Below are positions 9,101 to 55,704 of a stretch of DNA of 64,000 bases, piece after piece. Location: NCBI GenBank assembly GCA_963696295.1, contig CAVOJR010000001.1:736001-800000 (forward strand). Direction: 5' to 3'. Source of the DNA: an uncultured Chlamydiae bacterium (GTDB lineage: Bacteria > Chlamydiota > Chlamydiia > Chlamydiales > JAJFMB01). The position numbers and the translations under genes are program-made. Under the pieces are notes generated by a model. It saw only the letters and a list, made by a program, of their open reading frames with translations. It ran no database searches and was not told the DNA's origin. Numbering within the stretch: position 1 is the stretch's first letter; each line of letters starts with the position of its first letter.

Positions 9101-11305
9101 GACCGCATTGAAAATGTCGTAGGCAAACGTTTCGTATGTGCCGTCAGGATAGGTAATTTGGACCACGCGCCCAAGCTCGTCATACTGATATTTTGTGGCA
9201 TTGCCGTTCCAGTCATGGACGGCGGTGCGGTTTCCGCGCAAATCGTAAGTATAGGAGGTGACAAATGTGCCGTTGACTTTTTCAGCGATGCAGCGATTGG
9301 AAAAATCGTATTCATATTTCTTATGGTAGTTTTCCCATCTTTCTTCAAGGAGATTGTTGTTTTGATCGTAGGCGCGGTGAACGGCTCTGCCAAGGGCGTC
9401 CCTTTCAAGGATCACATTGCCATGCGCATCGTACTCCCAAAACAGGCTGTATTGCTTTTCATTGCGGCTGTCGTAGATCTCTTTTTCCAGCACCCAGCCT
9501 TGGGGGGAATAGTGAATCACGGTCTTCTTGATAAGCTCTTCCTGTTTTGTGGTGAGATTCAAAAACTTCTCTTCGATAATGTGAGGAAGGCCAAAGGGAA
9601 GCTTCCTGCGGGGGGTGACCGTTTCGATGGTGCGCTCGGTCACACCGGTCAAATCATCAATGTCATTCGTGATGCCATCATCCTTGACTGTTTTACACAA
9701 AGTGCAAAATTGGGGATCGTATTCAAAAAAATAACGGATCTTGATGTCGTCATTATCGCAAATAAATTTTGATTTGATCAGATCCGTTCCGGGATAATAG
9801 GTGTATTTAATTTTGAAGCCGGTGACATCGCTTTCGCTCTCAAGAAGATGAGAATCCTTAAAGTAGGTGTAGTTTTTACTATAACAATCGACCTCGCTAC
9901 TAAACGGCAAATGGTTTTCATCAAGCTCTATTTTACCCTCTTTTTTCCCCGTAATTATCCCATACAAATTTTCCACTGTAATGTTTCCGCAATCGTCGTA
10001 TATGAATTGACGGGAAGCATGGGGACGCTTATCGTTTTTGACATGGTGGCAAATAAGCCGGCTCTCATCGTCCCAAACATACCGGTCGCCCTTAAGATTT
10101 TTTAAGACATTGATCAAACGGTATGCCTTGTCATACTCATAGCGCGTGTGGTATCCCAGGGCGTCATAAACATCCGTACAGCCCTTATCTAAATGGTAAA
10201 TAAATTTATGGGTGGTTTCAGCATGATAGGTCGAGCCTACAGGGGCCTTCAAACATTTGACACGATCGATCCGTTTGTCTTTTTTATTGTAATCCCCTGT
10301 GTCGTAGTATTCGATGACACGATAGCGTTGATCGGGAAGAGTGCGTGAGATGATATGCTCTTCACGCCCTTTTTCCGTATCTCTATAGCGGTAAAGAATG
10401 GGAGGGCCGTTCGAGGGAATGGCTTTGGTGATATGAAACCTTTTCTCAACGCCTTTGCGTTTTTCTTTCCAAGAGCGCGGATTATAAGAGGCGTATTCGT
10501 AAACGACGCTGCTCCCGTTGTTGCCATTCACATGATACGTCCCGCGCTCTGAATTGATAACGTTCTGATGAAAGCGCAAGGCAGAGATAGTATTGCCCAA
10601 AGAGTCTATCGAGCGAACCAGCTTTGGTTGATGATTCTCATCATAGAGATAGTGAACTTTCAGACCATTTGGCAGTTGGTTCCACGAGATCTTGTAATGG
10701 AACATCTCAGTTCTGGGATCCAGTAAAGCATCGATAATCTGATCTATTATGCCCGGTTTATACTCTGGGGTATCCTCAAAAATCTCTTTTTTATAATAAT
10801 CAAACGTGTGCCGGCTGCCATCGGGCTGCTTAGCTTCGATCTGTTTATCAATAAAGGAAAGATCGGAATTTATAAGGTTCGTTCTGGCCGAAATAACGCC
10901 TGAACCGCAATTGGTGATGTGCTTGTTAAACTGGTAGTGGAGCTTGGTATCCCCTTTGTAGTGGGCGCTTCGTCCGGATAAATCGGTACAAAACGCATGG
11001 CACGATTCCGTACCTCGGCCCAGCACCTTGATATGGCTGTCGTGATTATGGCGCCATCCGCAAAAAAGAGACCTTGTGAGGTAGTCTGCGCTGGAATAAA
11101 ACCGTTCGTATGAAAGCGGCACGGGCCCAGGTAGTTGGATATCGGCGTGCTGCTCAATATAATCCCCGGTAATGACATTGACGCAGCCGGCTGCGATGGT
11201 AGGCAGCCCTCTTTCCACGTCTGTAATCGGCAGCTCGTAATCAAGCGGAGAATCGGCCCATAAGGGACTAAGAGCCAGGCATAGACAAAAGATTATTTTG
11301 TTCAT
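6149..11305 (-). CDS. RHS/YD-repeat polymorphic toxin with signal peptide and C-terminal alpha/beta-hydrolase-like (DUF687-like) domain
   Basis: Many YD repeats; RHS core end PDPAGYEDGSNLYAYARNNPLIYVDHFGL; C-terminal CHSEG...D...H. Likely start is MNKIIFCLCLALSPLWA at 11305, not 11434. Confidence 0.9.
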   Translation of the reverse strand: MNKIIFCLCLALSPLWADSPLDYELPITDVERGLPTIAAGCVNVITGDYIEQHADIQLPGPVPLSYERFYSSADYLTRSLFCGWRHNHDSHIKVLGRGTESCHAFCTDLSGRSAHYKGDTKLHYQFNKHITNCGSGVISARTNLINSDLSFIDKQIEAKQPDGSRHTFDYYKKEIFEDTPEYKPGIIDQIIDALLDPRTEMFHYKISWNQLPNGLKVHYLYDENHQPKLVRSIDSLGNTISALRFHQNVINSERGTYHVNGNNGSSVVYEYASYNPRSWKEKRKGVEKRFHITKAIPSNGPPILYRYRDTEKGREEHIISRTLPDQRYRVIEYYDTGDYNKKDKRIDRVKCLKAPVGSTYHAETTHKFIYHLDKGCTDVYDALGYHTRYEYDKAYRLINVLKNLKGDRYVWDDESRLICHHVKNDKRPHASRQFIYDDCGNITVENLYGIITGKKEGKIELDENHLPFSSEVDCYSKNYTYFKDSHLLESESDVTGFKIKYTYYPGTDLIKSKFICDNDDIKIRYFFEYDPQFCTLCKTVKDDGITNDIDDLTGVTERTIETVTPRRKLPFGLPHIIEEKFLNLTTKQEELIKKTVIHYSPQGWVLEKEIYDSRNEKQYSLFWEYDAHGNVILERDALGRAVHRAYDQNNNLLEERWENYHKKYEYDFSNRCIAEKVNGTFVTSYTYDLRGNRTAVHDWNGNATKYQYDELGRVVQITYPDGTYETFAYDIFNAVILHQDQCGLITKKKNNILGQPLQIQHPDDSTETNFYTIKGKLAKNCLRNGHVVKYKYDLFGRLIKDENKTYNYNAFHLCSETDREGSTTYYEYDGAGRLIAEKREGRRTTYIYDTLGNQSEVREWLDETRYIAHLKEYDFLGQITKEITDGNTTTYAYDADGNCCSVKIGESLTKTEFDFKRPVRIEDAMGHVTHIEYRYGVMDDFGNSVAQVITTEPSGYQNIVTKNVLNHDAKVERRDPLGHLLSQKKMFYNGKGELLQTKEGLEREITNTWEYSRGHLVRMIEAAGSKEQRITTFKYNQAGEKITTIQPNGLRLHYSYDEKGRLSRLKSKDIDYTYKYNALDLPIEVIDAHGGKTQRKYDPFGKITEETLANSHRLFYEYDPLGRLTRFTLPDRSSVRYKYDFLYLRTIERYSPDGALLYTHVNEEYDAQGRLTKARLPGAAGAITYSYDALSRPVEIAHPLWEQKVHGYYLSGNLIGYNNQTFAYDGLNQLIAEEGHTYEYDSLHNRRMKDGKAYKLNDLNQIADYRYDLNGNLIDDGEATYSYDALNRLTKVTKGGKQYEYLYDPFNRRITKKGDTTLHYLYMEKCEIGSLDEHLRDLRLLRTPATEIGTTIAIEMDGRPYVPLQDINGHIVALLDFDGNKVEERTYTAFGEGSSPQKTPWGYAGKRRDQESGLIYFGNRFYVPHLGRFLNPDPAGYEDGSNLYAYARNNPLIYVDHFGLSSSGIGRLCAVFCSILFSEGGLAVSVNPENGQTHAAPFTGPYKLFGPPRDLSTVSKYYIKENEDGTGICMFQNGVRNNKREYQKNLEYLAQMSKGIPIVGIHQHTCDGEGLLDDFLRYFIYNISGTMSNASTELLTTWVDYVENNPGKRILMFCHSEGAVHVRNALRNCAPEISSQIDVVVIAGGAYIDKDLAGSVAHYCSSRDIVPYLDYFGRRRAIEQGTLHVLEPAFGASYMDHSFRSPTFEDSIELAFKRFRGY

Positions 11306-11372
11306 GAAAACCGCCGGAAAAAAAAATTTCGCAAATCTATATCCGATCCGGCAAATTTTGCGCAAGCAGAAT

Positions 11373-11729
11373 TTATGTTTCCAATTTGTATTTTTGCAAT
11401 CGGCTATTGGGTTTTTCAGGTATGGTATAAGCAATTTTTCCTCGTTTGAGCAGAGAATGAATCACTTTGTTTAAACCGCTGGAAATTTTCTTATGTCCTA
11501 GACTGTTAGCTATTTCCGATTTTGAAAGGTGCCCCTTTTGAAGCAATCTTACTACCCCATCTTCTAATGACTCTTGCCTTGACTCTTGCCTTTGCTTAGC
11601 AGAGACCAGCTCTTCCGATTGAACGCGCACCTCCCAGGTTGGGTCGGGGTTTCCATTTCCTTTGCACCAATCAATTATGCTTAGTGTCCCCATACCCCAT
11701 TTTTCAATCAAACCTGCACGATAAAATAC
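11373..11729 (-). pseudogene. C-terminal remnant of an AlbA/HATPase_c_4 (RecG-C-like) regulator
   Basis: Begins abruptly at VFYRAGLIEKWGMGT and ends IAYTIPEKPNSRLQKY, paralleling the C-terminal half of 17359..19248; 12-bp tandem repeat at 11568-11591. Confidence 0.65.
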
Positions 11730-12840: not shown

Positions 12841-14910
12841 ATGATGAGATTTTTTTTTCTGCTACTTCCTTTTTTCGGACTGGCTTCAGAATATTTTGGA
12901 CAACTAACGGTGGGTGAGGATGTTGTAGTCTCCGAGCCCTATATGCACGGCCCTGTCAATGTCATAACAGGCGATTATGTCGAGAGCAATATAGATATCG
13001 TCCTTCCGGGTCCAAGAGCCATGGTGCTTTGCCAGCGGTATTGCAGCGGAGAGGAGGCGGCGCCTGTCGATGCTCGCTCTAAAGTCTATCCCAATGGGCA
13101 TTACGATTCTGTAAAACGGTATAATGTCCTCACCACCATTGATTTCTATGGAGCAGGGTCGTTATGGTTCAGCAACTTTACAATCGTGAATAGACATCGA
13201 AAGATAATTGTGAAGGCCTCCAACGGCCGCGAGGTGATTTATCAACTGGAATCGCAAAAAGAGGGGCTCTTAAAGTTATTTAGCAAAAAGACTTTTGCCC
13301 CGGGTGAAACTGCCCCTTTTTACCTTTGCCGCTATATTTTTGGAGCAAATGGAAAATTGCGATATAAGATCGAACCTTTGGGGCGCATTTTAAAAATAGA
13401 ATATGAAGAGGGCAAAGTCAAATCATTAAGCCGTTCCGGAGAATGTCACCGGTTTGACTACGATGAGGGAAAAACCACTGTCACCGACCCTTATGGCCGG
13501 ATAACCGTTTACTGGCATGAAAAAAATCAATTGCTCAATATAGACAAGTTTTTAGATCAAAAAGCTTATTATTCCACCTATTTTACTTGGGTAAACGATA
13601 AGCTCGCAAAAAAGGAAATCATTGACTTCCAACAACGGGAAGTGATTTTATCCCAATCTTATTTCTATGATGAGCAGGGCAACCTGATCGAAGAAATACT
13701 TGAGGGAAATTTGACCGGCAGGGGGTGGTCAAGCGACACCAAAACTTACACCTACACCGGTAATCTGCTGCAGACTATCACCACAGCGAGATTAAAAACA
13801 ACGATGCACTATCTACCCGATAGCGATCTCGTGGATGCGATTTATATTCAGGGCGCCCCTTTTCAAAAAAGGGAATTTTTCTTCTACGATGAGAACCACC
13901 TGCTCATCAGGACAATCCAGGATGACGGCAGCGGTCAGAAAGCAGAAGATTATACCGGAGTCACTTTTCGCAAAAGTGAAGAGCGGGAACTGAAAAATGG
14001 TTTGCCCGCTTCAATAATCATTAAGTACTGGAACGAACCCTCTGAAAATGGGGCGACTTTCATAAATTCATCACTGGATTTGGACGAGCGAGGCAAAGCC
14101 GGATCGAAGCGAAGCGGTCCGCATGAGGAGTCCATAGCGTTAGCTATGGACGACGAAGAGGATCGATCCGGCAAAGCCGCAGCCGGCCGAATCCCTGATG
14201 AATTTATGAAAGTGGCCCAAAAAAAGGAGTATCTTTATAACTATGACGGCAAACCGCTTTGTGAGAAAGTTTATACTTACGATAAGAGCTGGGTATTGGA
14301 ATCTGAGCAGCATTGGCATTATGATGCTGCCGGCCGCTGCGTTCAAGAAACAAATGGAACCTATTCCTATGATTGCCTGGGAAATCTCGTGCAGGAAAAC
14401 CAGGCAGAGCACTTCTACGACAAACTCAATCGCAGAGTCAAAACGGTCCGGAACAATTTAGTTGAATCCTGGGAATACGACCTTCTTGGCAACGTCTTGA
14501 GTCACACCGATATATTCCATAACAAAACGGCCTACGCGTACGATGATCTCAACCGCTTGATCGCCATTCGGGACCCTCAGGGGAATACGGAAGAATTCAC
14601 TTACGATGTGCTGAACTATATAACCTCTATCAAGGACAAAATGGGGCGGCGCACGAGTTATCAGAGAACTATCCGCGGAGAGATCTGCTCAACGACCCGC
14701 CCGGACGGCTCGGTGGAATGGCGCAGCTATACCACTGACGGCCTTTTGGCAGAGGAGGGCTTTCCCGGCGGCCTCACCATCCGTTACGCCTACGATGCCT
14801 TTCAGCGCGTGACAGAGCAAGAATGGTTTTTGCATGGTAAGCCGCAAAGGAAAATCACTAACCGCTACAGCGCATTTTTCAAGCTGGGAACTGAGGAGAA
14901 GCCGATTTGA
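12841..14910 (+). CDS. Secreted YD-repeat protein lacking RHS core and toxin tip, with an in-frame palindromic insertion
   Basis: Signal-like MMRFFFLLLPFFGLA; N-terminus VNVITGDY..DIVLPG matches the neighbouring RHS; YD repeats; no DPxG core. Confidence 0.8.
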   Translation: MMRFFFLLLPFFGLASEYFGQLTVGEDVVVSEPYMHGPVNVITGDYVESNIDIVLPGPRAMVLCQRYCSGEEAAPVDARSKVYPNGHYDSVKRYNVLTTIDFYGAGSLWFSNFTIVNRHRKIIVKASNGREVIYQLESQKEGLLKLFSKKTFAPGETAPFYLCRYIFGANGKLRYKIEPLGRILKIEYEEGKVKSLSRSGECHRFDYDEGKTTVTDPYGRITVYWHEKNQLLNIDKFLDQKAYYSTYFTWVNDKLAKKEIIDFQQREVILSQSYFYDEQGNLIEEILEGNLTGRGWSSDTKTYTYTGNLLQTITTARLKTTMHYLPDSDLVDAIYIQGAPFQKREFFFYDENHLLIRTIQDDGSGQKAEDYTGVTFRKSEERELKNGLPASIIIKYWNEPSENGATFINSSLDLDERGKAGSKRSGPHEESIALAMDDEEDRSGKAAAGRIPDEFMKVAQKKEYLYNYDGKPLCEKVYTYDKSWVLESEQHWHYDAAGRCVQETNGTYSYDCLGNLVQENQAEHFYDKLNRRVKTVRNNLVESWEYDLLGNVLSHTDIFHNKTAYAYDDLNRLIAIRDPQGNTEEFTYDVLNYITSIKDKMGRRTSYQRTIRGEICSTTRPDGSVEWRSYTTDGLLAEEGFPGGLTIRYAYDAFQRVTEQEWFLHGKPQRKITNRYSAFFKLGTEEKPI
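14051..14218. repeat. Palindromic element copy 1 (MITE/RPE-like), in frame in a CDS
   Basis: 23-bp terminal IR with 1 mismatch (14051-14073 / 14196-14218); inner 10-bp IR (14098-14107 / 14163-14172); central 9-bp hairpin 14130-14151; length 168 bp. Confidence 0.85.
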
Positions 14911-28042: not shown

Positions 28043-30088
28043 ATGGAAATTAATGCAAAAAATCTTCCTGACAAACTTAATGATGCAAATACCGAAATCG
28101 TCGGGGGAAAACTAAGAGACAAAGCTTTGGAAGTAAATACTAATTTGCGACCCCGAATTGTAGATATGATGCCCCTTTCTTCCACTCCGAGTGATAAACC
28201 CCTTGTTCAGAAAAAAACATTTGATGATACGAGGTTTAACCTGACATTTGATAACCCTGAGAAACTCTATAAAGCGCGGCATGCAGTACTTTATGACGAC
28301 CGATTTCGTAAGAATGAATATAAAAGAAAAAATCTTTGTGAAATAGAAGATTTAAAATTAACAGATGTTTTTAATTTGGATGAAAAAACATTAAATTTCC
28401 TTTTCATCAATTCAAATACAAAAATTGCCGACTGCCTGACAAGAGCTTACGTCTCTGAAGAAGGGGAAGAAACCATACGATTTGCCATTCTTTATAACAA
28501 AAAAAATCGTCAAGCAGCGTATAAAAAAAACAACTTAAATGATATCAAAGATAAAAAATTAAATGAAGTGCTTAACCTGGATGATAGAACGTTAAAAGCC
28601 CTTTATAAAAATCCCGATATGACGGTTGCAGAATGCATGCAGCAGATTAATACCAAGGAAGTCGATAAACAAATATCAAATGCTTTAATGCAATATAACG
28701 GACGAAAAACAGATAAGGTAGAAATTAATGGCCGTAAATATACACAGACAACGCGTCATTTTGAAGCGGTACCCACTCAAGAAAAGGCCGGCGTTTCCCT
28801 CTTCGGCGTCTTTTACAAATTAGTCAGAGGAACCACGCTAAGCAGCGTTGCCATTAAAAATAAACAATACGATCGGGAGATGAAAGATTTTAATGCCAAC
28901 AATGCCGTAGTCAGAGGATCCGATGGGACGCACTATTGCGCCCGTTCAGCCCGCAGCGACACCCCCGGCAGGATTTACGAGCTCATGATGACCAATTATC
29001 TCTCGGCTAAAGGAAAAGGAGTGGGGATTAGCAAAGACGGCGAGGGTAAAACGCGCTTTACCTTTAGCATCACCAGCGGCCAGGACAGAAATATTTTCAA
29101 ATATTTATTGTCAAAGATTGGTTTCGGCGAAGATGAGTTGACGTCTGTGAAAAACATTGAGAAATCAATCCAGGAAATTTGGGGAGATAAAGAATTTATC
29201 CTCATGACAGACCAGGAATCCGGCGAAGAAATACGCGTCAATAGACCCTTATTTAAAACTCAGGTTTTTAGCGCTTATTCCGGAGACAGGGCATACACAG
29301 ATAGCACCCGGCAAGATAATATGAAAGCCTCTCTGCAACAAAAAGAGTTGCTTTCAGCCAAGATAATCGATGAAGTATTTACCAAATCAACCATCTCTGA
29401 AGAGGCTAAAAATATCCTGTTAGAGCTGAAAGAAATGGAAAATAAAGATACCGGAAATCCTGAAAAAGTCCAAGCTTTGCTTGCAAGAATTGAGAAGTGT
29501 GAAGAAAAAGCCCAGCTGATGAAATATTACCTGGCTCTCGAAGCCGTGCACATCAACACCACCGGCTATAATCTCTCAGGCATCCCTATGGATGGGGAAT
29601 TCGATCAGGGTAAAATCGTTCTTCTCGATATGCAACTGAATGAGTTATTAAACATCGCCGATTCCTATCAATGCAAGAGCGGCTGCGATCGCACCCTTCA
29701 AATGGTGGCCATGAAGATGGCCCTGGTGGAATATGAGAAAAAGAATGGAACCCCTTTCAACCCGCTGACAGACATAAAAGGGGAATATGCTAATTTGACG
29801 TCAGACGATGCAAAGCAGATGGAATTTGCAGACTATTTCCAAAAATTCGCGGTTGGTCTTGGCGCCAGCATTGTCAACAGCGCCCGCGGAATAAATCAGG
29901 TGAAATGGGAACATCAAAAGATCGTGCGTTTATTCTGCGATCCAATGGCCGGAAGCACTGCGGCAATTCCCGGTTTAATTATTGACTTCGGCGACAGGTG
30001 GAAAGGCTTTTTGATTTCCATCCACCTCTCTTACGCCTCAGCCAGAAACTGGTTTTCTCACCGTAAAATCAGGCAGATAAAGGTCTAA
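28043..30088 (+). CDS. Putative phosphoinositide phosphatase effector (CX5R, SopB/IpgD/INPP4-like motif)
   Basis: CKSGCDRT at 29672-29695; N-terminal duplicated module. Confidence 0.65.
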   Translation: MEINAKNLPDKLNDANTEIVGGKLRDKALEVNTNLRPRIVDMMPLSSTPSDKPLVQKKTFDDTRFNLTFDNPEKLYKARHAVLYDDRFRKNEYKRKNLCEIEDLKLTDVFNLDEKTLNFLFINSNTKIADCLTRAYVSEEGEETIRFAILYNKKNRQAAYKKNNLNDIKDKKLNEVLNLDDRTLKALYKNPDMTVAECMQQINTKEVDKQISNALMQYNGRKTDKVEINGRKYTQTTRHFEAVPTQEKAGVSLFGVFYKLVRGTTLSSVAIKNKQYDREMKDFNANNAVVRGSDGTHYCARSARSDTPGRIYELMMTNYLSAKGKGVGISKDGEGKTRFTFSITSGQDRNIFKYLLSKIGFGEDELTSVKNIEKSIQEIWGDKEFILMTDQESGEEIRVNRPLFKTQVFSAYSGDRAYTDSTRQDNMKASLQQKELLSAKIIDEVFTKSTISEEAKNILLELKEMENKDTGNPEKVQALLARIEKCEEKAQLMKYYLALEAVHINTTGYNLSGIPMDGEFDQGKIVLLDMQLNELLNIADSYQCKSGCDRTLQMVAMKMALVEYEKKNGTPFNPLTDIKGEYANLTSDDAKQMEFADYFQKFAVGLGASIVNSARGINQVKWEHQKIVRLFCDPMAGSTAAIPGLIIDFGDRWKGFLISIHLSYASARNWFSHRKIRQIKV

Positions 30089-30741
30089 GACTTCCTGCCA
30101 TAAGCGCGGTCGCCGGCATCACCTAAACCCGGTACGATATAGCCATTCTCATTCAAAACAGGATCAACGGCCGCCGAAAAAACTTTAATGTCCGGGTTAT
30201 ATTGCGCCACGCGGGCAAGTCCCGGCTCCGCGGCAATGGCCGTGACCACGAAGATCCTCTTCGGTCCATAAGATTCGATAATTTGAATGGCATTAAGCAG
30301 CGATCCGCCGGTCGCGAGCATTGTGTCGGCCAGGATCACGGTCCTGCCTTTAAGATCGGGCAGGGCGATATATTCCACTTTCGCCTTCAACGTCTTATCG
30401 TCGCGGGACATTGAAATAAAGCCGACTTCCGCATTTGGGAAAACTTTGTGCACGCCTGCCGTCAGCGGAAGCCCGGCGCGCAGGATAGTCACTAACACAG
30501 GCATTTCATCGATCAGCTGATGTTTAGCCTCGGCCCCGGTCAGGGTTTTGATCGCGGTTTCCTGAGCGCTCAGCTCTTCTAAGATATTCAGCGCTAAATA
30601 CTCGCCGATTTTTTCCACCGCCTGCCTAAAATGGGCCGCATCGGTTTGAGGATTGCGGATTTCGTAAACGAGCTGGCTTAAGGCCTGTGTCTGGGCAAAA
30701 GCTGCCGCAGTGAAGAGAGTCAATAGAAAAAAGAATTTCAT
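30085..30741 (-). CDS. upp: Uracil phosphoribosyltransferase with signal-peptide-like N-terminus
   Basis: ILRAG, DTMLATGGS, GYIVPGLGDAGDRAYG; N-terminus MKFFFLLTLFTAAAFA; GGAGG RBS. Confidence 0.92.
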   Translation of the reverse strand: MKFFFLLTLFTAAAFAQTQALSQLVYEIRNPQTDAAHFRQAVEKIGEYLALNILEELSAQETAIKTLTGAEAKHQLIDEMPVLVTILRAGLPLTAGVHKVFPNAEVGFISMSRDDKTLKAKVEYIALPDLKGRTVILADTMLATGGSLLNAIQIIESYGPKRIFVVTAIAAEPGLARVAQYNPDIKVFSAAVDPVLNENGYIVPGLGDAGDRAYGRKS

Positions 30742-30871
30742 AAGGGTGCCTCCATCAAATCTGGGAAGATACTATATACCGGCCTATTTTTTTGGAAGTA
30801 AAAGTTATGGGCTTGTCAAAAATATTGTTAAGTTATAGATTGGGTGTTTTCAAGCTATTTAGAGAAATGAG

Positions 30872-31098: not shown

Positions 31099-32478
31099 AT
31101 GGACGTCGAAATATTAGCCAGGCTGCAATTCGCCCTCACCATCATCTTCCACTACATCTACCCCCCTCTCAGCATAGGCCTTGGGCTGTGCATGGTGATC
31201 ATCGAAGGGATATATGTCAAAACCGGCGATGAGCGCTATAAGACCATCGCCAAGTTCTGGACCAAGATCTTTGCCCTCACCTTCGCTATCGGGGTCGCCA
31301 CAGGTATTGTCATGGAATTTGAATTCGGCACCAATTGGGCTGCCTACTCCCGCTATGTCGGGGATGTGTTCGGCAGCGCTTTGGCCGCCGAAGGGATCTT
31401 CGCTTTCTTTCTCGAATCGGGATTTTTGGCCCTGCTGCTCTTCGGCTGGAACCGCCTGAGCGCAAAAATGCATTTTTTTTCCACCCTGATGGTGTGCCTC
31501 GGCTCCCATTTCAGCGCGGTTTGGATCGTGGTCGCAAACTCCTGGATGCAAACGCCCGCCGGCTACCATATCGCAGGCGAGGGGCTGAACGCGAGAGCGG
31601 AGATCACCTCGTTCTGGGGAATGGTGTTCAACCCCTCATCGGTAGAGCGCCTCGCCCATGTCATCGTCGGCACGTGGCTTGCCGGCGCGTTTTTAGTGAT
31701 CAGCGTCTCCGCCTACTATCTTTTGAAAAGACGCCATCTCGATTTTGCGAAAACCTCGCTCAAAGTAGGCCTCAGCGTCGCTTTCGTTTCGGTGATCCTG
31801 CAGGCCATTGCAGGCGATGCCGCCGGCAGAACCATTGCCAAATACCAGCCGATGAAGCTCGCGGCCCTGGAAGGGCTGTTCCGCACGACAAAAGGCGCCC
31901 CCTTTACCATTTTGGGGATAGTCAACACGGAAAAAGAAAAAGTGGACTACGCCATCCAGATTCCGAAATTGCTCAGTTTTCTCTCCTTTCGCGACTTTGA
32001 CGCCACCGTAAAGGGTCTGGAAAGCGTGCCTAAGAAAGATTGGCCGAAAACCGCCGCCCTATTCCAACTCTATCGCGTGATGATCGGCCTTTGGATATTG
32101 ATGCTGCTTTTGGCTTTGGCCGGCGTTTACTTCTGGCGCAAAGGAACGCTCTTTGAAAAAAGATGGCTGCTGCACTGTTTTGCGTGGTCGGTCCTCTTTC
32201 CCCAAATTGCCAACCAGGTGGGCTGGATCTGCACGGAAATGGGCCGCTACCCTTGGATTGTGCAGGACCTCCTGCGCATCTCAGAGGGCCTTTCCAAATC
32301 CGTGGTGGCAAGCCAAGTCCTCTTCTCGATCATCATGTTCGGCGTGGTCTACACGTTTTTGTTTATTTTGTTTATCTATCTGCTCAATGAAAAAATCAAA
32401 CATGGGCCCGATGAACATGAGGCCGCCACACCCTACCACCTGGGCCAGGCTTACGTGAAGGGGATGGCCGATGTTTGA
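31099..32478 (+). CDS. cydA: Cytochrome bd ubiquinol oxidase subunit I
   Basis: LARLQFA...[35 protein letters not shown]. Confidence 0.97.
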
Positions 32479-33487
32479 GTTTATCTGGTATGTCGTGCTG
32501 GTGATCCTCGTGACGGGCTATGCTATTTTAGATGGTTTTGATCTGGGTGTCGGCATGCTCCACCTCTTTTCCAAAAAGGATGAAGAGCGGCGTCTGATGC
32601 TCAATTCGATCGGCCCCGTGTGGGACGGGAACGAAGTGTGGCTGGTTTCGGCCGGCGGCGCTCTCTTTGCGGGCTTCCCCAATGCCTATGCTACGATCGC
32701 CTCCGGTTTTTACGAAGCGGTGATGCTCTTTTTGGCGGGCATCATCTTTCGCGCCGTCGCCATTGAATTTCGCAGCAAGCAGCCCATGGCGTGGTGGCGC
32801 TGGATGTGGGACATTTTTTTCAGCTTTGCGAGTTTCACGATAGCGCTTGGGCTCGGCGTGGTGCTGGGCAACCTGATCCGCGGCATTCCTATAAACGCTC
32901 AAGGGGACTTCACAGGCCACTTCCTCTCTTTCCTCAATCCCTATTCCCTCTTAATGGGTTTGACATCGGTGGCTCTCTTTTGCATGCACGGCGCGATCTA
33001 CATCGTCATGAAAACGGAAGGGGAACTGCATGATAAAATGCGCGAAAGAATCAACCCATCGATCATTTTCTTCATTATCTGCTATGTCTCCGCCACCATG
33101 GCCACGCTGATCTATCAGCCCCATATGGTTGAAATTGTGAAAAATAACCCTGCCCTTTTTATCCTGGCCCTGGCCACCATGCTGCTGATTGCGAATATCC
33201 CACGGGAGATTCATAAAGGGCATGACGGCCTGGCGTTTGGCTCTTCATGCCTCACCATCGTTTGCCTGATGGCGCTTTTTGCGATCGGCACCTTTCCCAA
33301 CCTGGTGCGGGCGAGTAACGACCCTGAGCACTTAAGTTTGACGATTTACAATGCCGCCTCCTCGGTCAAGACGTTAAAAATCCTGCTTACCATCACGGCT
33401 ATCGGCATCCCGCTCGTCCTCTCCTATACTTTTGGCATTTACTACCTCTTTCACGGCAAAGTGAAGCTAGAGGAAACAAGTTATTAA
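32471..33487 (+). CDS. cydB: Cytochrome bd ubiquinol oxidase subunit II
   Basis: LDGFDLGVG, IGPVWDGNEVWLV; overlaps cydA. Confidence 0.97.
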   Translation: MFEFIWYVVLVILVTGYAILDGFDLGVGMLHLFSKKDEERRLMLNSIGPVWDGNEVWLVSAGGALFAGFPNAYATIASGFYEAVMLFLAGIIFRAVAIEFRSKQPMAWWRWMWDIFFSFASFTIALGLGVVLGNLIRGIPINAQGDFTGHFLSFLNPYSLLMGLTSVALFCMHGAIYIVMKTEGELHDKMRERINPSIIFFIICYVSATMATLIYQPHMVEIVKNNPALFILALATMLLIANIPREIHKGHDGLAFGSSCLTIVCLMALFAIGTFPNLVRASNDPEHLSLTIYNAASSVKTLKILLTITAIGIPLVLSYTFGIYYLFHGKVKLEETSY

Positions 33488-39374: not shown

Positions 39375-39917
39375 ATGGAATCCGTTCACCAATTTCTTTC
39401 AACCAAAGTCATTATAAAAAAAGGGGATATCACAAAGGAAAAAGTTGAGGCGATCGTCAACGCCGCGAATGGCGGCCTGCTCGGCGGACTCAACATCGAC
39501 AACTCGATCCACCGCGCAGGGGGGCTCGCCCTCTTTGAAGAGTGTAAACGGATTAAGGAACAGCAGGGGCGCTGTCCCACCGGCGAAGCGGTAATCACCA
39601 CCGCCGGAAATTTGCCCGCCAAATTTGTCATCCACGCCGTAGGTCCTGTCTGGCGCGGCGGTGATTTCCAGGAGGATGAAATGCTGGAGAAAACATACCT
39701 TAGCAGCATGAATCTCGCCCTGGAACACCGCGTGCAAACCATCGCCTTTCCGCCTATCAGCGTCGGCCCCTACGGCTATCCGGCCGACCGGGCGGCCAAG
39801 ATCACTTTCCAGACGATTAAGGATTTTATCGTACAAAAAAGCTTTCCTCTTGAGGAAATGCGCTTTGTCCTCTACGAGGATGCCGATTATCACGCCTATA
39901 TAGGAGCTTTTGCTTGA
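39375..39917 (+). CDS. Macro domain protein (YmdB/MacroD-like)
   Basis: GDIT...AIVNAAN, IHAVGP, IAFPPIS.G.YGYP. Confidence 0.9.
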   Translation: MESVHQFLSTKVIIKKGDITKEKVEAIVNAANGGLLGGLNIDNSIHRAGGLALFEECKRIKEQQGRCPTGEAVITTAGNLPAKFVIHAVGPVWRGGDFQEDEMLEKTYLSSMNLALEHRVQTIAFPPISVGPYGYPADRAAKITFQTIKDFIVQKSFPLEEMRFVLYEDADYHAYIGAFA

Positions 39918-41044
39918 AGATCATTATCGCGCCGCAGGCGTTTAAAGGAAACATCTCCGCTTTTGATGCCGCTAAGGCCATCCAAAAGGGCATTCAGCGG
40001 GTTTACCCCGCTGCCGAAACAATTCTTAACCCCGTTGCTGACGGAGGCGACGGGACGCTAGACGCTCTCATGCGCACGCTGGGAGGCACTCTCAAAATGG
40101 CCGAGGCCATCAACGCCGCGGGAGACCCTTGCCGCGTCATCTGGGGCGTGCTGCCCGACGGAACAACAGCGGTGATCGAGATGGCCAAAGTGTGCGGCCT
40201 CGCCAATATGAAAAAGCCGAACCCTCTGCACGCCACCACCTTTGGATTAGGGATGGTGATAAAAAAAGCCTTAGACGCAGGCTTCCGCGAGTTTATCATC
40301 GGCCTAGGAGGCAGCGCGACCAACGACGCCGGCGCTGGCATGGCTGAAGCGCTAGGCGCCAAGTTTTTGGATCAGAATAATCAGCCTCTCGCAAAAGGGG
40401 GCCTCGCTTTGCAAAATCTCTCCCGCATCGATTTGAGCAGCCTCGACCCAAGAATCAAGGAGTCCCATTTTCTGATAGCCTGCGATGTGAACAACCCAAT
40501 GATTGGCCAAGAAGGGGCTTCCCGTATTTACGCTCCCCAAAAAGGGGCCGGACCGGCGGAAGTCGAGGAGCTGGAAAAAGCTTTAACCCGCTTTGCCGCC
40601 ATCGCTGGCAAGGATAGTGGCACCCTGAAGTGGGGCGGGTCTGCCGGCGGAACGGCTGCCGGAGCGGCTCTTTTTCTCAATGGACAGCTCATGCCGGGCA
40701 TCGATCTTATTTTGGAGAAGCAAAATTTTGATCAGCTGCTGCAAAACGCCAATCTGGTAATCGTCGGAGAAGGGCGGCTGGACAATCAGACGGCGAACTA
40801 TAAAGCCCCCTTTGGGATTGCCAAAAGGGCCAAAGCGAAGAACATCCCCGTGATCGCGATCGTGGGGTCCGCAGACATTGCCAGGCCCGATGGAATAGAC
40901 GCGGTGATGCCCCTCACCTTCGCCCCTCATGCGAAGATCCCCCGGCATACCGCCGAACTGATCACAGAGGCCGCGGAGCAGGCGATGCTGCTCACAACCT
41001 TGTTAGTCGGGCCTGAACCCCCCCTTGCTATGAAAAAAAAATAA
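39914..41044 (+). CDS. Glycerate kinase (GlxK/GarK family)
   Basis: IIIAPQAFKG, PVADGGDGT, GLGGSATNDAG, APQKGA, GEGRLD.QT. Confidence 0.93.
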   Translation: MKIIIAPQAFKGNISAFDAAKAIQKGIQRVYPAAETILNPVADGGDGTLDALMRTLGGTLKMAEAINAAGDPCRVIWGVLPDGTTAVIEMAKVCGLANMKKPNPLHATTFGLGMVIKKALDAGFREFIIGLGGSATNDAGAGMAEALGAKFLDQNNQPLAKGGLALQNLSRIDLSSLDPRIKESHFLIACDVNNPMIGQEGASRIYAPQKGAGPAEVEELEKALTRFAAIAGKDSGTLKWGGSAGGTAAGAALFLNGQLMPGIDLILEKQNFDQLLQNANLVIVGEGRLDNQTANYKAPFGIAKRAKAKNIPVIAIVGSADIARPDGIDAVMPLTFAPHAKIPRHTAELITEAAEQAMLLTTLLVGPEPPLAMKKK

Positions 41045-42469: not shown

Positions 42470-42661
42470 ATGGAAAAGAATTTAGCTTTGATAACGGCCG
42501 GCCTCGTGTTCTTTCTGGTCGCCATGATTCATCTATATCGGCTGATCCACCCCTTTAACCTGACGGTCGGAACCTATTCCGTCCCTTTATGGGTCAACGC
42601 GGCTGCCTTTGTCGTCACAGGTCTTTTGTCCCTGTGGATGTTTTACTCCCTGAAGGGATGA
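42470..42661 (+). CDS. Small two-TM membrane protein
   Basis: 63 aa hydrophobic ORF; GGAG RBS. Confidence 0.65.
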   Translation: MEKNLALITAGLVFFLVAMIHLYRLIHPFNLTVGTYSVPLWVNAAAFVVTGLLSLWMFYSLKG

Positions 42662-44141
42662 TATAGGAGTGGGCCCTTTTAAACCGCACGTTCTCAACCA
42701 GTTTGATTTTTAAATCATAGAGTGATTTTTCCATTCCCACGACATATTGATGCGGATTCAAAAAGCGCTTGACGCCGGCGTAAAATTGGTCGAGATCCTC
42801 TTTCGCTTTTTTCTGAATATCCTGCAGTTTGGGCAAAGCGTACACGAGCTCCCCCTCTCTGAATACCGGGACAAGCAAATCCTGCCCTTCGACATTCCTC
42901 GTCAATATTTTCTGCCGGGTGGCGTCGAACGGATCGATCAAATGGCACCCTTCGCTCAAATCGGTATGCACGTCGTAAATCACGTCGGCAATAAACTCAT
43001 TGTTTTTCTTAAACCTTTTTACCTGCAAAATGCCGGGATTTGAAATCTTGGCCATCTGCTCCGACAGCTTGATTTTGTACTTCCAGGGGCCTCCGGGATC
43101 GCGGATCGCAGAGAGTTTGTAAACCCCATCGAGAGCCGGCTGCTGGTCCCCTGTGACCAGTTTCGTGCCGATCCCCCACACGGTAATTTGCGCCCCCTGC
43201 CGCTTCAGATCGGCGATCAGCGTTTCATCCAGTTCATTAGTGGCAAAAATGCTGGTCTCTGTAAAGCCCGCCTGGTCCAGCAGTTCACGGCTTTTTTTGC
43301 TTAAGTAATAAAGATCCCCAGAATCAAGCCTGACGCCGATGAGTTTTTTCCCCCTTTCCGCAAGCCACTTGCCCACCTCGATCGCCTTCTCTACCCCTTC
43401 AAGGGTGTTGTACGTATCGACCAGGAGGACCACATTGTCCGGAATCATCTTGGCATAGGTCTCAAAGGAAGCGAGTTCGTCGTCGAACACCATCACCCAG
43501 CTATGGGAATGGGTCCCTTTGACCGGAATATTAAATAATTTGGCCGCCAGCACATTGGAAGTGCTGTTGCAGCCGCCGATATAGGCCGCCCTGGCCGCCG
43601 TTAACGCTCCGTCGATCCCTTGCGCCCGCCTAAGGCCGAACTCCATCAGGTAATCTTCCTCAGCTGCGATGCGCATGCGGGCCGCCTTAGTGGCGATCAG
43701 TGTGGGAAAGTTGATCAGATTGAGCAGAGGGCTTTCTAAAATCTGGCATTGGATCAAAGGCCCCCGCACTCTGACCATGGGCTCATAAGGGAATACCACA
43801 GTCCCTTCTGGCATCGCGTCGACATCGCAAGTGAATACCAAATCGCCCAAATACGCGAGGAAGTCATCGCTGAAAAGGCGTTCTCCATTGTCTGTTTCCT
43901 GCTTGGCCAAAAATTTCAAATCGCTTTGATCGAAGCGAAAATTGGCCAGAAAATTGACAATGCCTTCCAGACCGGCTGCGATTGTAAAGCCCCCCTTGAA
44001 AGTCGGACGGCGAAAAAAGAGGTGGAAGACCGCCTCCTTTTTATCCAGGCCCGCTTTCCAATAGGCATAGGACATCGTCAATTGATAGAAGTCGGTCAAA
44101 AGCGCCAACGATTGATTATAAATATTTGAACTGATAGTCAT
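42615..44141 (-). CDS. pncB: Nicotinate phosphoribosyltransferase
   Basis: LLTDFYQLTM, EFGLRRAQG, GTHSHSW, LVDTY, VRLDSGDL, GVYKL. Confidence 0.95.
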   Translation of the reverse strand: MTISSNIYNQSLALLTDFYQLTMSYAYWKAGLDKKEAVFHLFFRRPTFKGGFTIAAGLEGIVNFLANFRFDQSDLKFLAKQETDNGERLFSDDFLAYLGDLVFTCDVDAMPEGTVVFPYEPMVRVRGPLIQCQILESPLLNLINFPTLIATKAARMRIAAEEDYLMEFGLRRAQGIDGALTAARAAYIGGCNSTSNVLAAKLFNIPVKGTHSHSWVMVFDDELASFETYAKMIPDNVVLLVDTYNTLEGVEKAIEVGKWLAERGKKLIGVRLDSGDLYYLSKKSRELLDQAGFTETSIFATNELDETLIADLKRQGAQITVWGIGTKLVTGDQQPALDGVYKLSAIRDPGGPWKYKIKLSEQMAKISNPGILQVKRFKKNNEFIADVIYDVHTDLSEGCHLIDPFDATRQKILTRNVEGQDLLVPVFREGELVYALPKLQDIQKKAKEDLDQFYAGVKRFLNPHQYVVGMEKSLYDLKIKLVENVRFKRAHSYIIPSGSKTSTGTKDL

Positions 44142-44192
44142 GTCAACAAAGTAGCACTCACCTCCCATTTCGGTAAAGCCCAAATTCACTGT

Positions 44193-44222
44193 TTGACAAA
44201 AAATCACAGCTTTTTATATAAT
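44193..44222 (+). promoter_or_regulatory. Consensus sigma70/sigma66 promoter
   Basis: TTGACA (44193-98) N18 TATAAT (44217-22). Confidence 0.65.
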
Positions 44223-45237: not shown

Positions 45238-45657
45238 TTAAATTTGGGGAGATTGTTGTTGCTCAATATATTGCCTTATTACCTCGAGTGGTGCTCCTCC
45301 GCAAGCCCCTGCAAAATAACTGGGGGACCAAAGACTTCCTTCCCACAAAGCATGTCGAATGCTTGGATACTCTTGTTTGCGAATTAATCTTGAAGAAACA
45401 CCTTTCAAACAATTCACTAATTTTGAGACGGCTACTTTGGGTGGATAGTTGACAAGAAGATGAACATGATCATCTTCTCCTTCAAATTCAACCAATTGGG
45501 CTTCAAAGTCATTACATACATTAACGAAAATTGTTCTTAATTCCTCGAGTATCTGCCTGGTAAAAACTTTTCTTCGAAATTTTGTGACAAAGACCAAATG
45601 AACATGCATGAGAAAAACACACGTTCTACCTCTTCTTAAATCTGTTGACGTATTCAT
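45238..45657 (-). CDS. tnpA: Y1 HUH transposase
   Basis: HLVFVTKFRR, DHVHLL, KGVSSR, LWSPSYF, QYIEQQ. Confidence 0.95.
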   Translation of the reverse strand: MNTSTDLRRGRTCVFLMHVHLVFVTKFRRKVFTRQILEELRTIFVNVCNDFEAQLVEFEGEDDHVHLLVNYPPKVAVSKLVNCLKGVSSRLIRKQEYPSIRHALWEGSLWSPSYFAGACGGAPLEVIRQYIEQQQSPQI

Positions 45658-45680
45658 AGGCCAAAGCATATCATGCTCCT

Positions 45681-46801
45681 ATGATAGTTCGGAAATCATT
45701 TCAATACAGATTGAACCCGACAAAGAAGCAAGCCAAGATGCTACAAGCCCAGCTTGACGAGTGTCGATGGCTTTACAATGAGCTGCTTAGTCAACGTAAA
45801 TTGGCTTACGAAGAACTCGATATCACTTTGTCCAAATATCAACAAAGCATGCTATTGCCTCTATTAAAAAATGAAAGGCCCTCTCTTGACCAAGTACATT
45901 CCCAGGTATTACAAAATGTTGTAGATCGATTGGATAAAGGTTTTCAAGCATTTTTTCGAAGATGCAGGCAGGGAGAAAAGCCTGGTTTTCCCCGGTTTCG
46001 CGGTATGCATAGATACAATAGTTTTTGCTATCCACAGAGTGGATTTTCACTTATTGGGAAAGAACTTAAACTATCGAAAATCGGTAATATCCGTTTAAAA
46101 ATGCATCGTCCAATTGAAGGAGAGGTAAAGACTTGCACATTGAGAAGAAACGCCTCGGGAGATTGGGATGTTTCTTTGTCATGCGAAGTTAATATAGAAC
46201 CCCAAGTTGCTAAACAAGAAGCAATAGGCATCGATGTTGGGCTTGAGCATTTTGCTACTTTGTCCGACGGAGGTCAAATTGCCAATCCGAGATTTTTTAA
46301 ATTTGAAGAACAAGCACTTGCAAAAGCTCAGCGTAAGCTAGAAAAAATGGATAAAGGGACAAAAGAAAGGCGAAAACAAGGGAAAGTTGTAGCAAAGATT
46401 CATGAACGAATCAGCAACAAAAGAAAAGATTTTTGTCACAAAGAATCTAAAAAAATCGTCGATCGATATCAATATATTTGCGTAGAGGACCTGGATATCA
46501 AAAAAATGGTAGAAGGGTCGTTTCTTGCAAAAAGCATTACAGACGCAAGTTGGAATCAATTTCGTCAATTCCTCACCTACAAAGCGGCAGAAGCTGGTAG
46601 GAAGCTAGGATTGGTGAATCCTGCCTATACAACACAAGATTGCAATCGATGTGGACATCGGGAGGAAAAAAAACTCAGCGAAAGAACGCATTGTTGTGTC
46701 ATTGTGGGTATAAAACCTCAAGGGATTTCAACGCAGCGCAAAATATTTTGGCCCTCGGATTAGATGGCCTGGGAGTAATCCCTAGAAGCCTTCGCCTTTA
46801 G
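45681..46801 (+). pseudogene. tnpB: TnpB RNA-guided endonuclease, frameshifted near 46698
   Basis: IGIDVG, VEDL, TTQDCNRCG; the shifted frame continues HCGYKTSRDFNAAQNIL to TAG at 46801. Confidence 0.88.
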
Positions 46802-52691: not shown

Positions 52692-53324
52692 TTATGGGAC
52701 TAATTGTTTGATAAAGTCAATACAACCTTGAGAGTTTCTGATAATCATATCAGCATATTGTTTACTTGGTTCCACATATTTTTCATGCATCGGCTTCACC
52801 TCTTCCGTATATTGCGACTTGACATGATCTAAAGAGCGCCCTCTTTCTTGCATATCCCGATCGATGCGGCGAAGCAACCGGATATCCCCATCTGTATCAA
52901 CAAAGATTTTGCAATTGAGCAGCTCTCTAATTTCGGATAGAGCCAAAATCAAAAATCCCTCCACAATAACAATCTCTGCAGGCTCTTTCAGCTGGGTAAA
53001 GGGTTCCCGTTTAGAAACGGTGAAATTATAAACCGGGCTATTAACCGGCTGGCCGGCCGCCAAAGCGATGAGATCCTTTTTTAAAAGCGCAACATCGATC
53101 GCCTCAGGGCATGCGTAGTTAGGCTTCCCAAATTCATTCAGGGGAATTTCCTGTTTGCTTCTATAATAGTCATCCTGATGAACAATGACAACTCGATCGC
53201 CAAAAAGGGTTTTCAAGTTATTTGCCAAAGTGGTTTTACCTGACGCTGAACCTCCGGCTATGCCGATCATAAATGCGGGTAATTCCCTACAGAAGAGAAG
53301 CAATAAGATTAAAATGCGGATCAT
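52692..53324 (-). CDS. udk: Uridine kinase with signal-peptide-like N-terminus
   Basis: IGIAGGSASGKTT, QDDYY, IVEG, RRIDRDMQERGR, VKPMH...PSK.YAD. Confidence 0.9.
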   Translation of the reverse strand: MIRILILLLLFCRELPAFMIGIAGGSASGKTTLANNLKTLFGDRVVIVHQDDYYRSKQEIPLNEFGKPNYACPEAIDVALLKKDLIALAAGQPVNSPVYNFTVSKREPFTQLKEPAEIVIVEGFLILALSEIRELLNCKIFVDTDGDIRLLRRIDRDMQERGRSLDHVKSQYTEEVKPMHEKYVEPSKQYADMIIRNSQGCIDFIKQLVP

Positions 53325-54082
53325 TGGCAACTCTCCGAAAAATCTTCCACAGTTCCTGAAAAGTCCTTGACCTGTCCGGCAAAAAGGGAATATTTATCAA
53401 GGCAAAGAGGAAGGGGTTCAGCCGTGGAGAAAGAGATGTGGGGGAAACAACGGGTTACTTGAGTATATAAAAATGGTTCCACATCGGATCGATACTCGCG
53501 TATTCTTTTTTCAATCACTTCAGGGGTATCATTTATCCTAAATTTAAGGGGGGATTGGCATGCATTGCATATTCCTGAAACTAAAGGTATTGCGCTTTTT
53601 TTGTTATATACATGATTGCAGACGGGACATACCATGCGCTGCGCTATCCTTTCCATACACTGTGCGTTATCGGCCTCGAGAAAGATTGCCAAGGCGCGGA
53701 CGCGCAGATTAAGGGTGTCCAGCAATTGACACAAAAAAGCCAAATCTTCTTCCGAACGGGCAAACCCGTCGATGATAAAGGGACCGCCTTGCTCTGCCAA
53801 GATATGGATCTCCTTGCCGATCAAATCGTACATGATGCTTTTTTGAATGTAATTTCCCTTCCTGACAACTTCTGCTATCTCAATGCCAATCGGGGTTTGC
53901 TGATCGATTTCCCGACGAACCAGATCTCCTGCGCTAACATGGTGATAATAATGATTGTCACAAAGATGTTGCGAAAATGTGCCTTTTCCGGCGCCCGGAG
54001 GCCCTAATAGGATAATCACAGGCTCCAAAGCAGAAAGGAGCGAAGCGGCGGCAACGAACAAAAATACAAGATACTTTTTCAT
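53321..54082 (-). CDS. adk: Adenylate-kinase-family NMP kinase (Zn-LID) with signal-peptide-like N-terminus
   Basis: LLGPPGAGKGT, SAGDLVR, IDGFAR, CPVC...CNAC, R.ND. Confidence 0.85.
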   Translation of the reverse strand: MKKYLVFLFVAAASLLSALEPVIILLGPPGAGKGTFSQHLCDNHYYHHVSAGDLVRREIDQQTPIGIEIAEVVRKGNYIQKSIMYDLIGKEIHILAEQGGPFIIDGFARSEEDLAFLCQLLDTLNLRVRALAIFLEADNAQCMERIAQRMVCPVCNHVYNKKSAIPLVSGICNACQSPLKFRINDTPEVIEKRIREYRSDVEPFLYTQVTRCFPHISFSTAEPLPLCLDKYSLFAGQVKDFSGTVEDFSESCQ

Positions 54083-55704
54083 AAACTATTCCTTGTTATC
54101 CATTTCTTAAGTTCAGGGTATTTATCTGAATCGGAATTTAAAAGTGTGTGATAAACCTCCATGGATCGCTCTACGGATTGCAATTGGAAGTGGATGATAT
54201 TTTTTTCCACTACAGGTTCTTGCAAATTGCCCAGCAGATCCAAGACGAGAAATTCTCTTTTTAAAAAACTTTTATAAAAATTACGGGGTGCTTCTTTGAT
54301 ATGCTCCCGATCAATAGGCGCAAGGAGGTAATGCTTTTTATGAGAATCTTTTAATATGAAATGGGAGAATTGACCCATGTAAGTAATCAGTTCATCGGTA
54401 GTTTTATAAAAATAATGTTCCTCCCCTTCTAACTTTAGATGTTCAAGCAGGTCGAAAGGCAGCTGATCGCCATTGGTGAGAAATTCGAAGATTCCTTTAT
54501 TTTGGCCATGAAATAAAAGGACTAAGTATTTCGGATCGATCACTACTTCGTTGTCAGTCAGATACAACATATTGCGATCAATCCCTTCGCTGTACAATTT
54601 TTTAATATAAGGATGCAATTCCGTGGAAAAAGGGATTCTAAAGCCTTGCAAAAATGCGCTTTTTAAAATATGCGCTTCTTTAAAAAGAATAGGAAAATAT
54701 TTTTTTTCGAGAATATGATCGTTTAAAGGAATCGATTTCTTTTCAATAAAAACCGAAAGGACTTCCCTCTCCTCTTTAGAGAGGTTATTCAAATTTAAAT
54801 CATCCTTAAAATGGTAATCTTCGACAAAACCGGAGGAGAAGTAATTAGATAAATACATCAAATAATGTCTTTGAATTTCAGCAATCAACCCCTTAGGCGC
54901 TTCAATGGAAAAGTTTTTCGAGTAGTCGATATGGGGCGAGGGAGTTTGGAGAAACTCATCCAAACTCATTTGTTTGCACTGGGTGTTATTATCCTGAAGG
55001 TAGAGATTAAACTTAATCTTTGAAAAATCGTAGATCAAGGGTTTGCTGCACTCATTGCGGTAGTCGCGTAAAAGACTGAACTTGCGATCGAAAAACTTGG
55101 TTAAAAAAAGAGTGGCGTAATATTTTGCCATATCTTTTTTGAAGATCATCGTGCACTGGGTCCAGGGATCATCGACCCATTTCGGATCCCGATAAATAAA
55201 TACACCCTCTTTCTCCAATACGCGGCAAATCTCCGTCACGAATTGATCCAGGGGCCCCTTATTCATCACATAGGAGAATACTTCGTGAGCCAAAGCGGAG
55301 GCTCCAACACCTGAAATGGTACTATCCCTGATCTGCTTCATATCGGTAGCTGACATAGTGGCAAGTTCTATCTTAGGTCCTGCGAGGCTATTGATATAAG
55401 ATTTGACTATAGGTCTTCTGATGGGAATAGAATTAATCACTAGCGGATCAATATCTGCAGCTATCAAGGTAGGACGAACGGTTTTTGGAAGCTGCAGCAC
55501 CATTTCAGCAATAGCATCCCCTCCGGTTCCAATATCGATAAATGTTCCATTGGTGTTTTTCTGAATATATTCAAGGAGCTGTGTCTTCTCAGACATATTT
55601 TTACTGATATTTGATAAATAGAAATCAATATAATCGTGCTTATGTTCCACGCTGCCATGCAACAAAGAACTCAATAGAAAAAGGAAGATATGCAAGTATT
55701 TCAT
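54079..55704 (-). CDS. Large class I SAM-dependent methyltransferase-like protein with signal-peptide-like N-terminus
   Basis: FIDIGTGG, AADID, HEVFSY, RVLEKEGVFIYRD; long unknown C-terminal region. Confidence 0.7.
   Translation of the reverse strand: MKYLHIFLFLLSSLLHGSVEHKHDYIDFYLSNISKNMSEKTQLLEYIQKNTNGTFIDIGTGGDAIAEMVLQLPKTVRPTLIAADIDPLVINSIPIRRPIVKSYINSLAGPKIELATMSATDMKQIRDSTISGVGASALAHEVFSYVMNKGPLDQFVTEICRVLEKEGVFIYRDPKWVDDPWTQCTMIFKKDMAKYYATLFLTKFFDRKFSLLRDYRNECSKPLIYDFSKIKFNLYLQDNNTQCKQMSLDEFLQTPSPHIDYSKNFSIEAPKGLIAEIQRHYLMYLSNYFSSGFVEDYHFKDDLNLNNLSKEEREVLSVFIEKKSIPLNDHILEKKYFPILFKEAHILKSAFLQGFRIPFSTELHPYIKKLYSEGIDRNMLYLTDNEVVIDPKYLVLLFHGQNKGIFEFLTNGDQLPFDLLEHLKLEGEEHYFYKTTDELITYMGQFSHFILKDSHKKHYLLAPIDREHIKEAPRNFYKSFLKREFLVLDLLGNLQEPVVEKNIIHFQLQSVERSMEVYHTLLNSDSDKYPELKKWITRNSL

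Follow-up and report, generated by a model that had tools for sequence, protein, structure and literature searches.

A chlamydial uracil phosphoribosyltransferase with a predicted Sec-type leader, and similar leaders on other nucleotide-salvage enzymes

Chlamydiae are described in PMC13328217 and PMC4333871 as nucleotide parasites that do no more than take up NTPs from the host; PMC4333871 also cites work on the nucleotide specificity of the NTT carriers of other chlamydiae. A close precedent is Ndk2 of Waddlia chondrophila, which has a predicted signal peptide and was detected in the host-cytosol fraction (PMC7143554, Table 1), as was a signal-peptide-bearing FMN reductase. The same list includes the periplasmic proteins Skp, HtrA and Mip, so release by secretion cannot be told apart there from leakage or vesicles. 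Expression in a surrogate host showed Ndk2 leaving the inclusion in a leader-dependent manner; in native infection its authors could not detect it in the host, and they allow that overexpression may have produced artefacts (PMC13318545). The genome studied here resembles Waddlia in having an ndk1-ndk2 pair, that is, leaderless and signal-peptide copies of a nucleotide enzyme (PMC13318545; PMC7143554). The Waddlia protein is, however, described as a lone effector that may act in the nucleus (PMC13318545), whereas here the leader spans a whole salvage route.

Two further comparisons are instructive. Microsporidia, also obligate intracellular parasites, place a signal peptide on a cytosolic enzyme, hexokinase, and the proposal is that it boosts host metabolism close to the surface of the parasite (PMC3514677, PMC6460350, in the parts available); they differ in using the eukaryotic secretory route and in exporting one glycolytic enzyme, and the likeness is one of analogy, not homology. 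CPAF, which passes through Sec and type II secretion according to the relevant part of PMC7143554, shares with the present case a signal peptide and the presence of a type II secretion system (T2SS), a possible route to the inclusion lumen or host cytosol; CPAF is a protease with experimental support, whereas T2SS dependence of the enzyme described here is conjectured by comparison. A Dependentiae parasite carries signal peptides on 44% of its genes (PMC6561590), and the signal-peptide passages of that paper name no salvage enzymes. The available parts of PMC13328217 and PMC11495043 contain nothing on exported salvage, and the words 'phosphoribosyl' and 'uracil' are absent from the main text of PMC13318545. 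A search of the literature, mostly of open-access main texts, gave no report of a secreted or periplasmic uracil phosphoribosyltransferase (UPRTase), APRTase or Prs. The present locus is of a known kind, a cytosolic enzyme to which an intracellular parasite has added a signal peptide, while neither an exported UPRTase nor a whole exported nucleotide route was found in the literature searched.

The window, the whole stretch of 64,000 nucleotides analysed, comes from an uncultured chlamydial bacterium, which the names of its homologues and its NTT, T2SS and Pom genes mark as an environmental chlamydia. Its upp locus has the following features, in window coordinates.

30085..30741, minus strand: UPRTase (Upp) open reading frame of 218 amino acids, N-terminus MKFFFLLTLFTAAAFA followed by QTQ
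30749..30753, minus strand: ribosome-binding site GGAGG, 7 nt ahead of the leader ATG, read from the sequence
30694..30741, minus strand: predicted Sec/SPase I signal peptide, residues 1-16, consisting of MK, a hydrophobic core and A-F-A (heuristic and conservation)
30085..30693, minus strand: predicted mature UPRTase, residues 17-218, with stop codon
30301..30336, minus strand: PRPP-binding motif ILADTMLATGGS, the canonical Pro replaced by Thr140 (alignment)
30106..30144, minus strand: canonical motif GYIVPGLGDAGDR (alignment), which we take to bind uracil as in UPRTase structures

The body of the protein is that of a UPRTase. It scores 209.8 bits against the curated model NF001097 (cut-off 114), which matches from residue 22, and 205.4 bits against TIGR01091, slightly below the cut-off of 208.35. 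UPRTases in the PDB match at E 5.5e-39, with alignments starting from residues 14-32. An AlphaFold model built on a 67-row alignment has a mean pLDDT of 90.6, and its top Foldseek matches are UPRTases (TM 0.79-0.84; type I PRTase fold, UPRTase type). In common with bacterial Upp (PRK00129/TIGR01091, PF14681; PDB 2e55, 1i5e) are the fold, the canonical ILRAG loop and uracil motif GY[IV]xPGLGDAGDR, and a whole-family score over the PRK00129 cut-off. Unlike bacterial Upp, the protein has a Sec-type leader, lacks the first strand in its predicted mature form, has no internal start that would give a cytoplasmic form and bears a Pro-to-Thr change in the PRPP motif. A preliminary description of this DNA had taken both substrate motifs to be intact; this holds for the uracil motif but not wholly for the PRPP motif, where DPMLATGG reads DTMLATGG across the whole Upp clade. 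Of 131 more distant representatives, mostly leaderless, 12 also have Thr at this site, and elsewhere the catalytic motifs vary little or not at all among homologues. We conclude that Upp is, as judged by its sequence, a true member of its family whose leader, predicted to direct export, is new and was gained repeatedly, and we predict with good confidence that it is active as a UPRTase.

The AxA leader and the ribosome-binding site reported earlier at the upp start are both confirmed, the leader being Sec-type, 16 residues long and ending in A-F-A before Q. Leaders were recognised by a heuristic of our own, backed by conservation, which looks for Lys or Arg followed by eight uncharged hydrophobic residues. 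The Upp leader matches the signal-peptide pattern, with a basic n-region at K2, an h-score of 2.74 and A14 and A16 at positions -3 and -1; neither a twin-arginine motif nor a lipobox cysteine was found in it. Its h-score lies within the range of 2.31-3.84 of 25 outer-membrane or periplasmic proteins of the same genome, which were themselves chosen among heuristic passers. The heuristic fires at 36 of 9241 internal Met positions, whereas it passes 180 of 211 Upp homologues, more than chance would give; nine more homologues show the h-region only, 10 fail, and in the other 12 the start is called too short or too late for the leader to be judged.

Across these homologues the leader is kept in character and not in sequence. 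The majority-residue share is 0.36 at positions 2-16 and 0.73 at positions 30-215, and Ala, Ser or Gly occupies position -1 in 107 of at least 114 counted. In 26 of 33 clade loci a Shine-Dalgarno (SD)-like motif stands ahead of the leader start, where the background is 16%, and in none of the 33 does an internal SD with a start lie behind the leader. Among the best 150 Upp clusters (50% identity) the leader test is passed by 9 of the top 19 but by 6 of the 131 that follow, and leaders are thus uncommon on Upp as a whole. No gene neighbour of clade upp is common to more than three of the 33 loci.

The leader might nevertheless not be a working export signal but a remodelled first strand, an uncleaved tether or the product of a wrong start, leaving the enzyme in the cytoplasm. 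Residues 9-16 do share register with the canonical first strand, the leader predictor is a heuristic, and 30 of 40 clade genomes have no other upp match (E<=1e-20), as a housekeeping role could explain. A wrong start call is, however, ruled out by the SD ahead of the leader ATG and the lack of an internal SD and start. As for the first strand, the alignment shows no sequence likeness to it despite the overlap in register, and AlphaFold models the first 20 residues as a helix (pLDDT 68-69) without a first strand; identity of leader and strand is therefore rejected as homology, and the doubt expressed earlier on this point survives only as the overlap at residues 9-16. Moreover, leaderless chlamydial Upps also lack the first strand, whereas another leader-bearing lineage retains the strand behind its leader, and the leader scores as envelope proteins do. 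We therefore regard a cytoplasmic Upp as very improbable. The leader is predicted to route the enzyme out through Sec, an export that is well supported by sequence, and cleavage after Ala16 is highly probable.

In a survey of 400 genomes of the phylum, 133 besides the present one contain a upp match (E<=1e-20). The close clade of leader-bearing Upps, delimited at E<=1e-43 by a gap picked after the list was seen, comprises 40 of the 400 genomes and spans 10 families and 26 genera. The present genome also has a second, leaderless upp at C1:165063-165650. In a quick tree of 87 rows, leader-bearing Upps fall in at least three places: the present clade, which adjoins two Bacteroidota rows; a second clade embedded in the leaderless chlamydial Upps; and rows among canonical bacterial Upps, a genus named Chlamydia included. 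A single clade for all of them is rejected by the AU test (p 2.45e-07; 37 rows, 21 versus 16), in which the group was set by leader status and the rows were chosen after the 87-row tree, whose careful search did not finish. Since leader-bearing Upps do not form one clade, the leader was gained repeatedly. The nearest named outgroup is a Bacteroidota Upp on a long branch, with only seven outgroup rows, and this thin outgroup leads us to name no donor. Left out of the trees were G093 and G319 (frame broken), G080 (truncated call), one G397 duplicate and Fusobacterium (no frame extracted).

Four genomes of a genus that takes the name Chlamydia from one of them carry a leader-bearing Upp, which is lengthened by a long extension in three. 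Prs gave no match in three of the four genomes; the other has one Prs, which bears a leader. In three genomes of one genus, a leader-bearing HGPRT-like gene (167.9 bits, TIGR01203) adjoins the leader-bearing upp.

The preliminary description had also placed upp 22 kb from a leader-bearing kinase operon, and the distance from upp to udk is indeed 21,951 bp. The operon comprises three genes.

52692..53330, minus strand: uridine kinase (Udk) with leader, the only udk of the genome by tblastn (NF004018, 221 bits against a cut-off of 180)
53321..54082, minus strand: adenylate-kinase-like NMP kinase with leader (TIGR01351, 156.8 bits, under the cut-off of 168; leader score)
54079..55704, minus strand: 541-residue leader-bearing protein heading the operon, with a methyltransferase-like DIGTGG motif seen by eye

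The udk leader recurs in five of six relatives' loci examined, and the 541-residue protein has no NCBIfam or Pfam match. The G+C content of the operon (52692-55704) is 0.38-0.45, compared with 0.52 for upp and 0.47 for the chromosome, and may reflect separate acquisition.

A scan of the 3039 called genes returned 370 soluble proteins that pass a loose form of the heuristic, a list that includes false positives (IspD, MetK, AtpG) and misses leaders without Lys or Arg; the 360 passers outside the window were scanned against Pfam over their first 330 residues. Leaders were found beyond the pyrimidine enzymes, on purine salvage and on many other cytosol-type enzymes. The salvage enzymes concerned are Prs (two copies), Apt, Cdd (cytidine deaminase), Ndk2 and Adk, assigned by NCBIfam, together with Upp, Udk and the second Adk-like kinase inside the window, and as a set they form a connected route from base to NTP. 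By tblastn, Apt, Cdd, Udk and both Adks exist in this genome as leader-bearing copies only, while Upp, Prs and Ndk also have leaderless paralogues, and PyrH and PyrG motifs sit in leaderless genes. The leaderless upp, prs and ndk mean that some salvage takes place in the cytoplasm, and uracil may also enter the cell by an unrecognised route. Accordingly, the earlier suggestion that both routes to UMP, through Upp and through Udk, are exported holds in that both enzymes have leaders whose sequences support export, but the Upp concerned is a second copy beside a leaderless one.

Other proteins with leaders include glycosyltransferases, sulfotransferases, FkbM and other methyltransferases, NDP-sugar epimerases and SAM decarboxylase; glyoxalase II, FMN reductase, thioredoxins, phytochelatin synthase and a choline-kinase-like protein; and HAD and Nudix hydrolases and three ClpB-like AAA proteins. 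The main chlamydial adk (here C1:187004-187738, minus strand) frequently carries a leader, behind which an SD-like motif and a start were seen at 8 of the 12 such loci examined; the present gene has two ATGs at the leader and only a weak SD-like motif. From these sequences, one gene is likely to give both an exported and a cytoplasmic form, which suggests one simple way of gaining leaders.

The genome encodes four NTT/TLC nucleotide carriers and a type II secretion cluster, gspD/E/F, in which GspF scores over its cut-off and the secretin-ATPase-pseudopilin arrangement is recognisable by eye; Pom genes are also present. In this genome, 97.4% complete and with positive controls, there is no match to OMPdecase (pyrF) or Amidohydro_1 (pyrC family), nor to the NCS2, CNT, NupG and NCS1 base and nucleoside transporters. 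The only PyrB (aspartate carbamoyltransferase; C1:1592507-1593469, plus strand) starts with a leader, seen in only 2 of 11 matches, as does a dihydroorotate-dehydrogenase-like PyrD protein (C1:430448-431515, minus strand), but CarAB (C1:2391964-2395642) does not, a distribution that exported salvage does not explain. A full exported de novo pathway was considered and rejected, CarAB being leaderless and pyrC-family, pyrE-like and pyrF matches absent.

An exported Upp would need PRPP, and from this the preliminary description had argued for the host compartment. In the present genome that argument fails, since two leader-bearing PRPP synthetases are encoded which could make PRPP wherever Upp goes, and a host location is not forced; it fares better in relatives without Prs. 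As Prs needs ATP and ribose-5-phosphate, host metabolites would be required either way. The second leader-bearing Prs (C1:2726119-2727102, plus strand) scores low, at 196 bits against 407, its motifs look degenerate by eye, and it is possibly a non-catalytic partner.

The leader-Prs clade occurs in 48 of 399 other genomes, and of 30 loci read 22 pass the heuristic, seven more show a leader by eye and one is cut off. It is found in 19 of 40 Upp-clade genomes (10 of the 26 genera) and 29 of 359 others, counts that are inflated by kinship; the 21 clade genomes without a match speak against an exported chain. Apt matches occur in 10 of 40 Upp-clade genomes and 33 of 359 others, a leader being visible by eye at 29 of 30 loci read, and apt adjoins leader-prs in three genomes. 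Among 43 genomes of leader-Upp lineages, chosen for lacking a leader-Prs match, 13 have no Prs match, three of them 99% complete and of the genus named Chlamydia (G037, G048 and G059); the 28 Prs loci read in the 43 are leaderless except for one. Both arrangements are thus seen, so PRPP may be made alongside Upp or drawn from the host.

We give about even chances to the proposal that the leader-bearing Upp works with the other leader-bearing salvage enzymes on the host side and feeds NTT uptake. The exported enzymes would draw on the uracil, uridine, cytidine and adenine of the host to make nucleotides for the carriers: Prs would supply PRPP, Upp and Apt (and Cdd with Udk) would form NMPs, the NMP kinases would raise these to NDPs and Ndk2 to NTPs, and the NTPs would be taken up by NTT. 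Because many unrelated cytosol-type enzymes also have leaders, we infer this purpose and do not read it from the leaders themselves. Onward passage to the host cytosol or inclusion surface, by type II secretion or membrane vesicles, is slightly favoured.

A Sec leader by itself delivers only to the periplasm, and the enzymes may, after Sec export, stay there or in the inclusion lumen, assembling porin-passed host ATP, ribose-5-phosphate, bases and nucleosides before the inner-membrane NTT carriers. The leader-bearing Prs, which co-occurs with the Upp clade, could supply PRPP locally; the NTT carriers suggest that nucleotides already reach the periplasm; and the host cytosol has its own Prs, so that exporting one there is less needed. 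On the other hand, the near-complete, Prs-less G037, G048 and G059 would then depend on PRPP, a labile compound, reaching the periplasm from the host. A cofactor-rich compartment is also the better setting for those leader-bearing enzymes that use SAM, PAPS, NDP-sugars or NADPH, and in Waddlia the signal-peptide proteins Ndk2 and FMN reductase were recovered with the host cytosol (PMC7143554). We consider retention in the periplasm or lumen rather unlikely.

Upp might instead be secreted mainly to alter the host, by depleting its uracil or PRPP, by changing nucleotide signalling or through a non-enzymatic activity, and not for feeding. Such a role is in keeping with Ndk2, which in surrogate systems reaches the host nucleus and Golgi and for which host-modulating roles are proposed (available parts of PMC13318545), and with the altered PRPP motif and the degenerate look of the second leader-bearing Prs. 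Yet the leader-bearing set links base to NTP, the remaining catalytic motifs of Upp are conserved, and the same Thr is found in distant Upps that mostly lack leaders, and we judge a primarily host-altering Upp to be improbable.

If host-side salvage that feeds NTT is correct, what is secreted is a metabolic pathway and not a single effector, which would explain the use of upp in Chlamydia genomes without PRPP synthetase, suggest a reason for the retention of upp in some genomes that have no PRPP synthetase or uracil permease, and link the single Waddlia Ndk2 result to a pathway. If the leaders work, many chlamydiae would also raise or reshape the host NTP supply from outside their own cytoplasm, and reconstructions of metabolism that assign these enzymes to the bacterial cytoplasm would have the wrong compartment. 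More tentatively, and with less than even odds in our estimate, many chlamydiae may outsource salvage, leaders having repeatedly been put on Upp, Apt, Hpt, Prs, Cdd, Udk, Adk and Ndk, with the route running in the host and NTPs returning through NTT.

Several other genes of the window were noted by eye. cydAB-like genes (31099-33487, plus strand) are divergent from upp, and a leaderless nicotinate phosphoribosyltransferase lies at 42615-44207 (minus strand). Long Rhs/YD-repeat-like proteins with leaders are encoded at 6149-11434 (minus strand) and 12841-14910 (plus strand), the first being followed by a small lipoprotein-like gene (5598-6149, minus strand) that may be an immunity gene. A Macro-domain protein stands beside a glycerate kinase (39375-39917 and 39914-41044, both plus strand), and translations of 45238-46763 and 47719-49160 suggest a putative TnpA/TnpB-like IS200/IS605 element and an AbiE-like gene pair.
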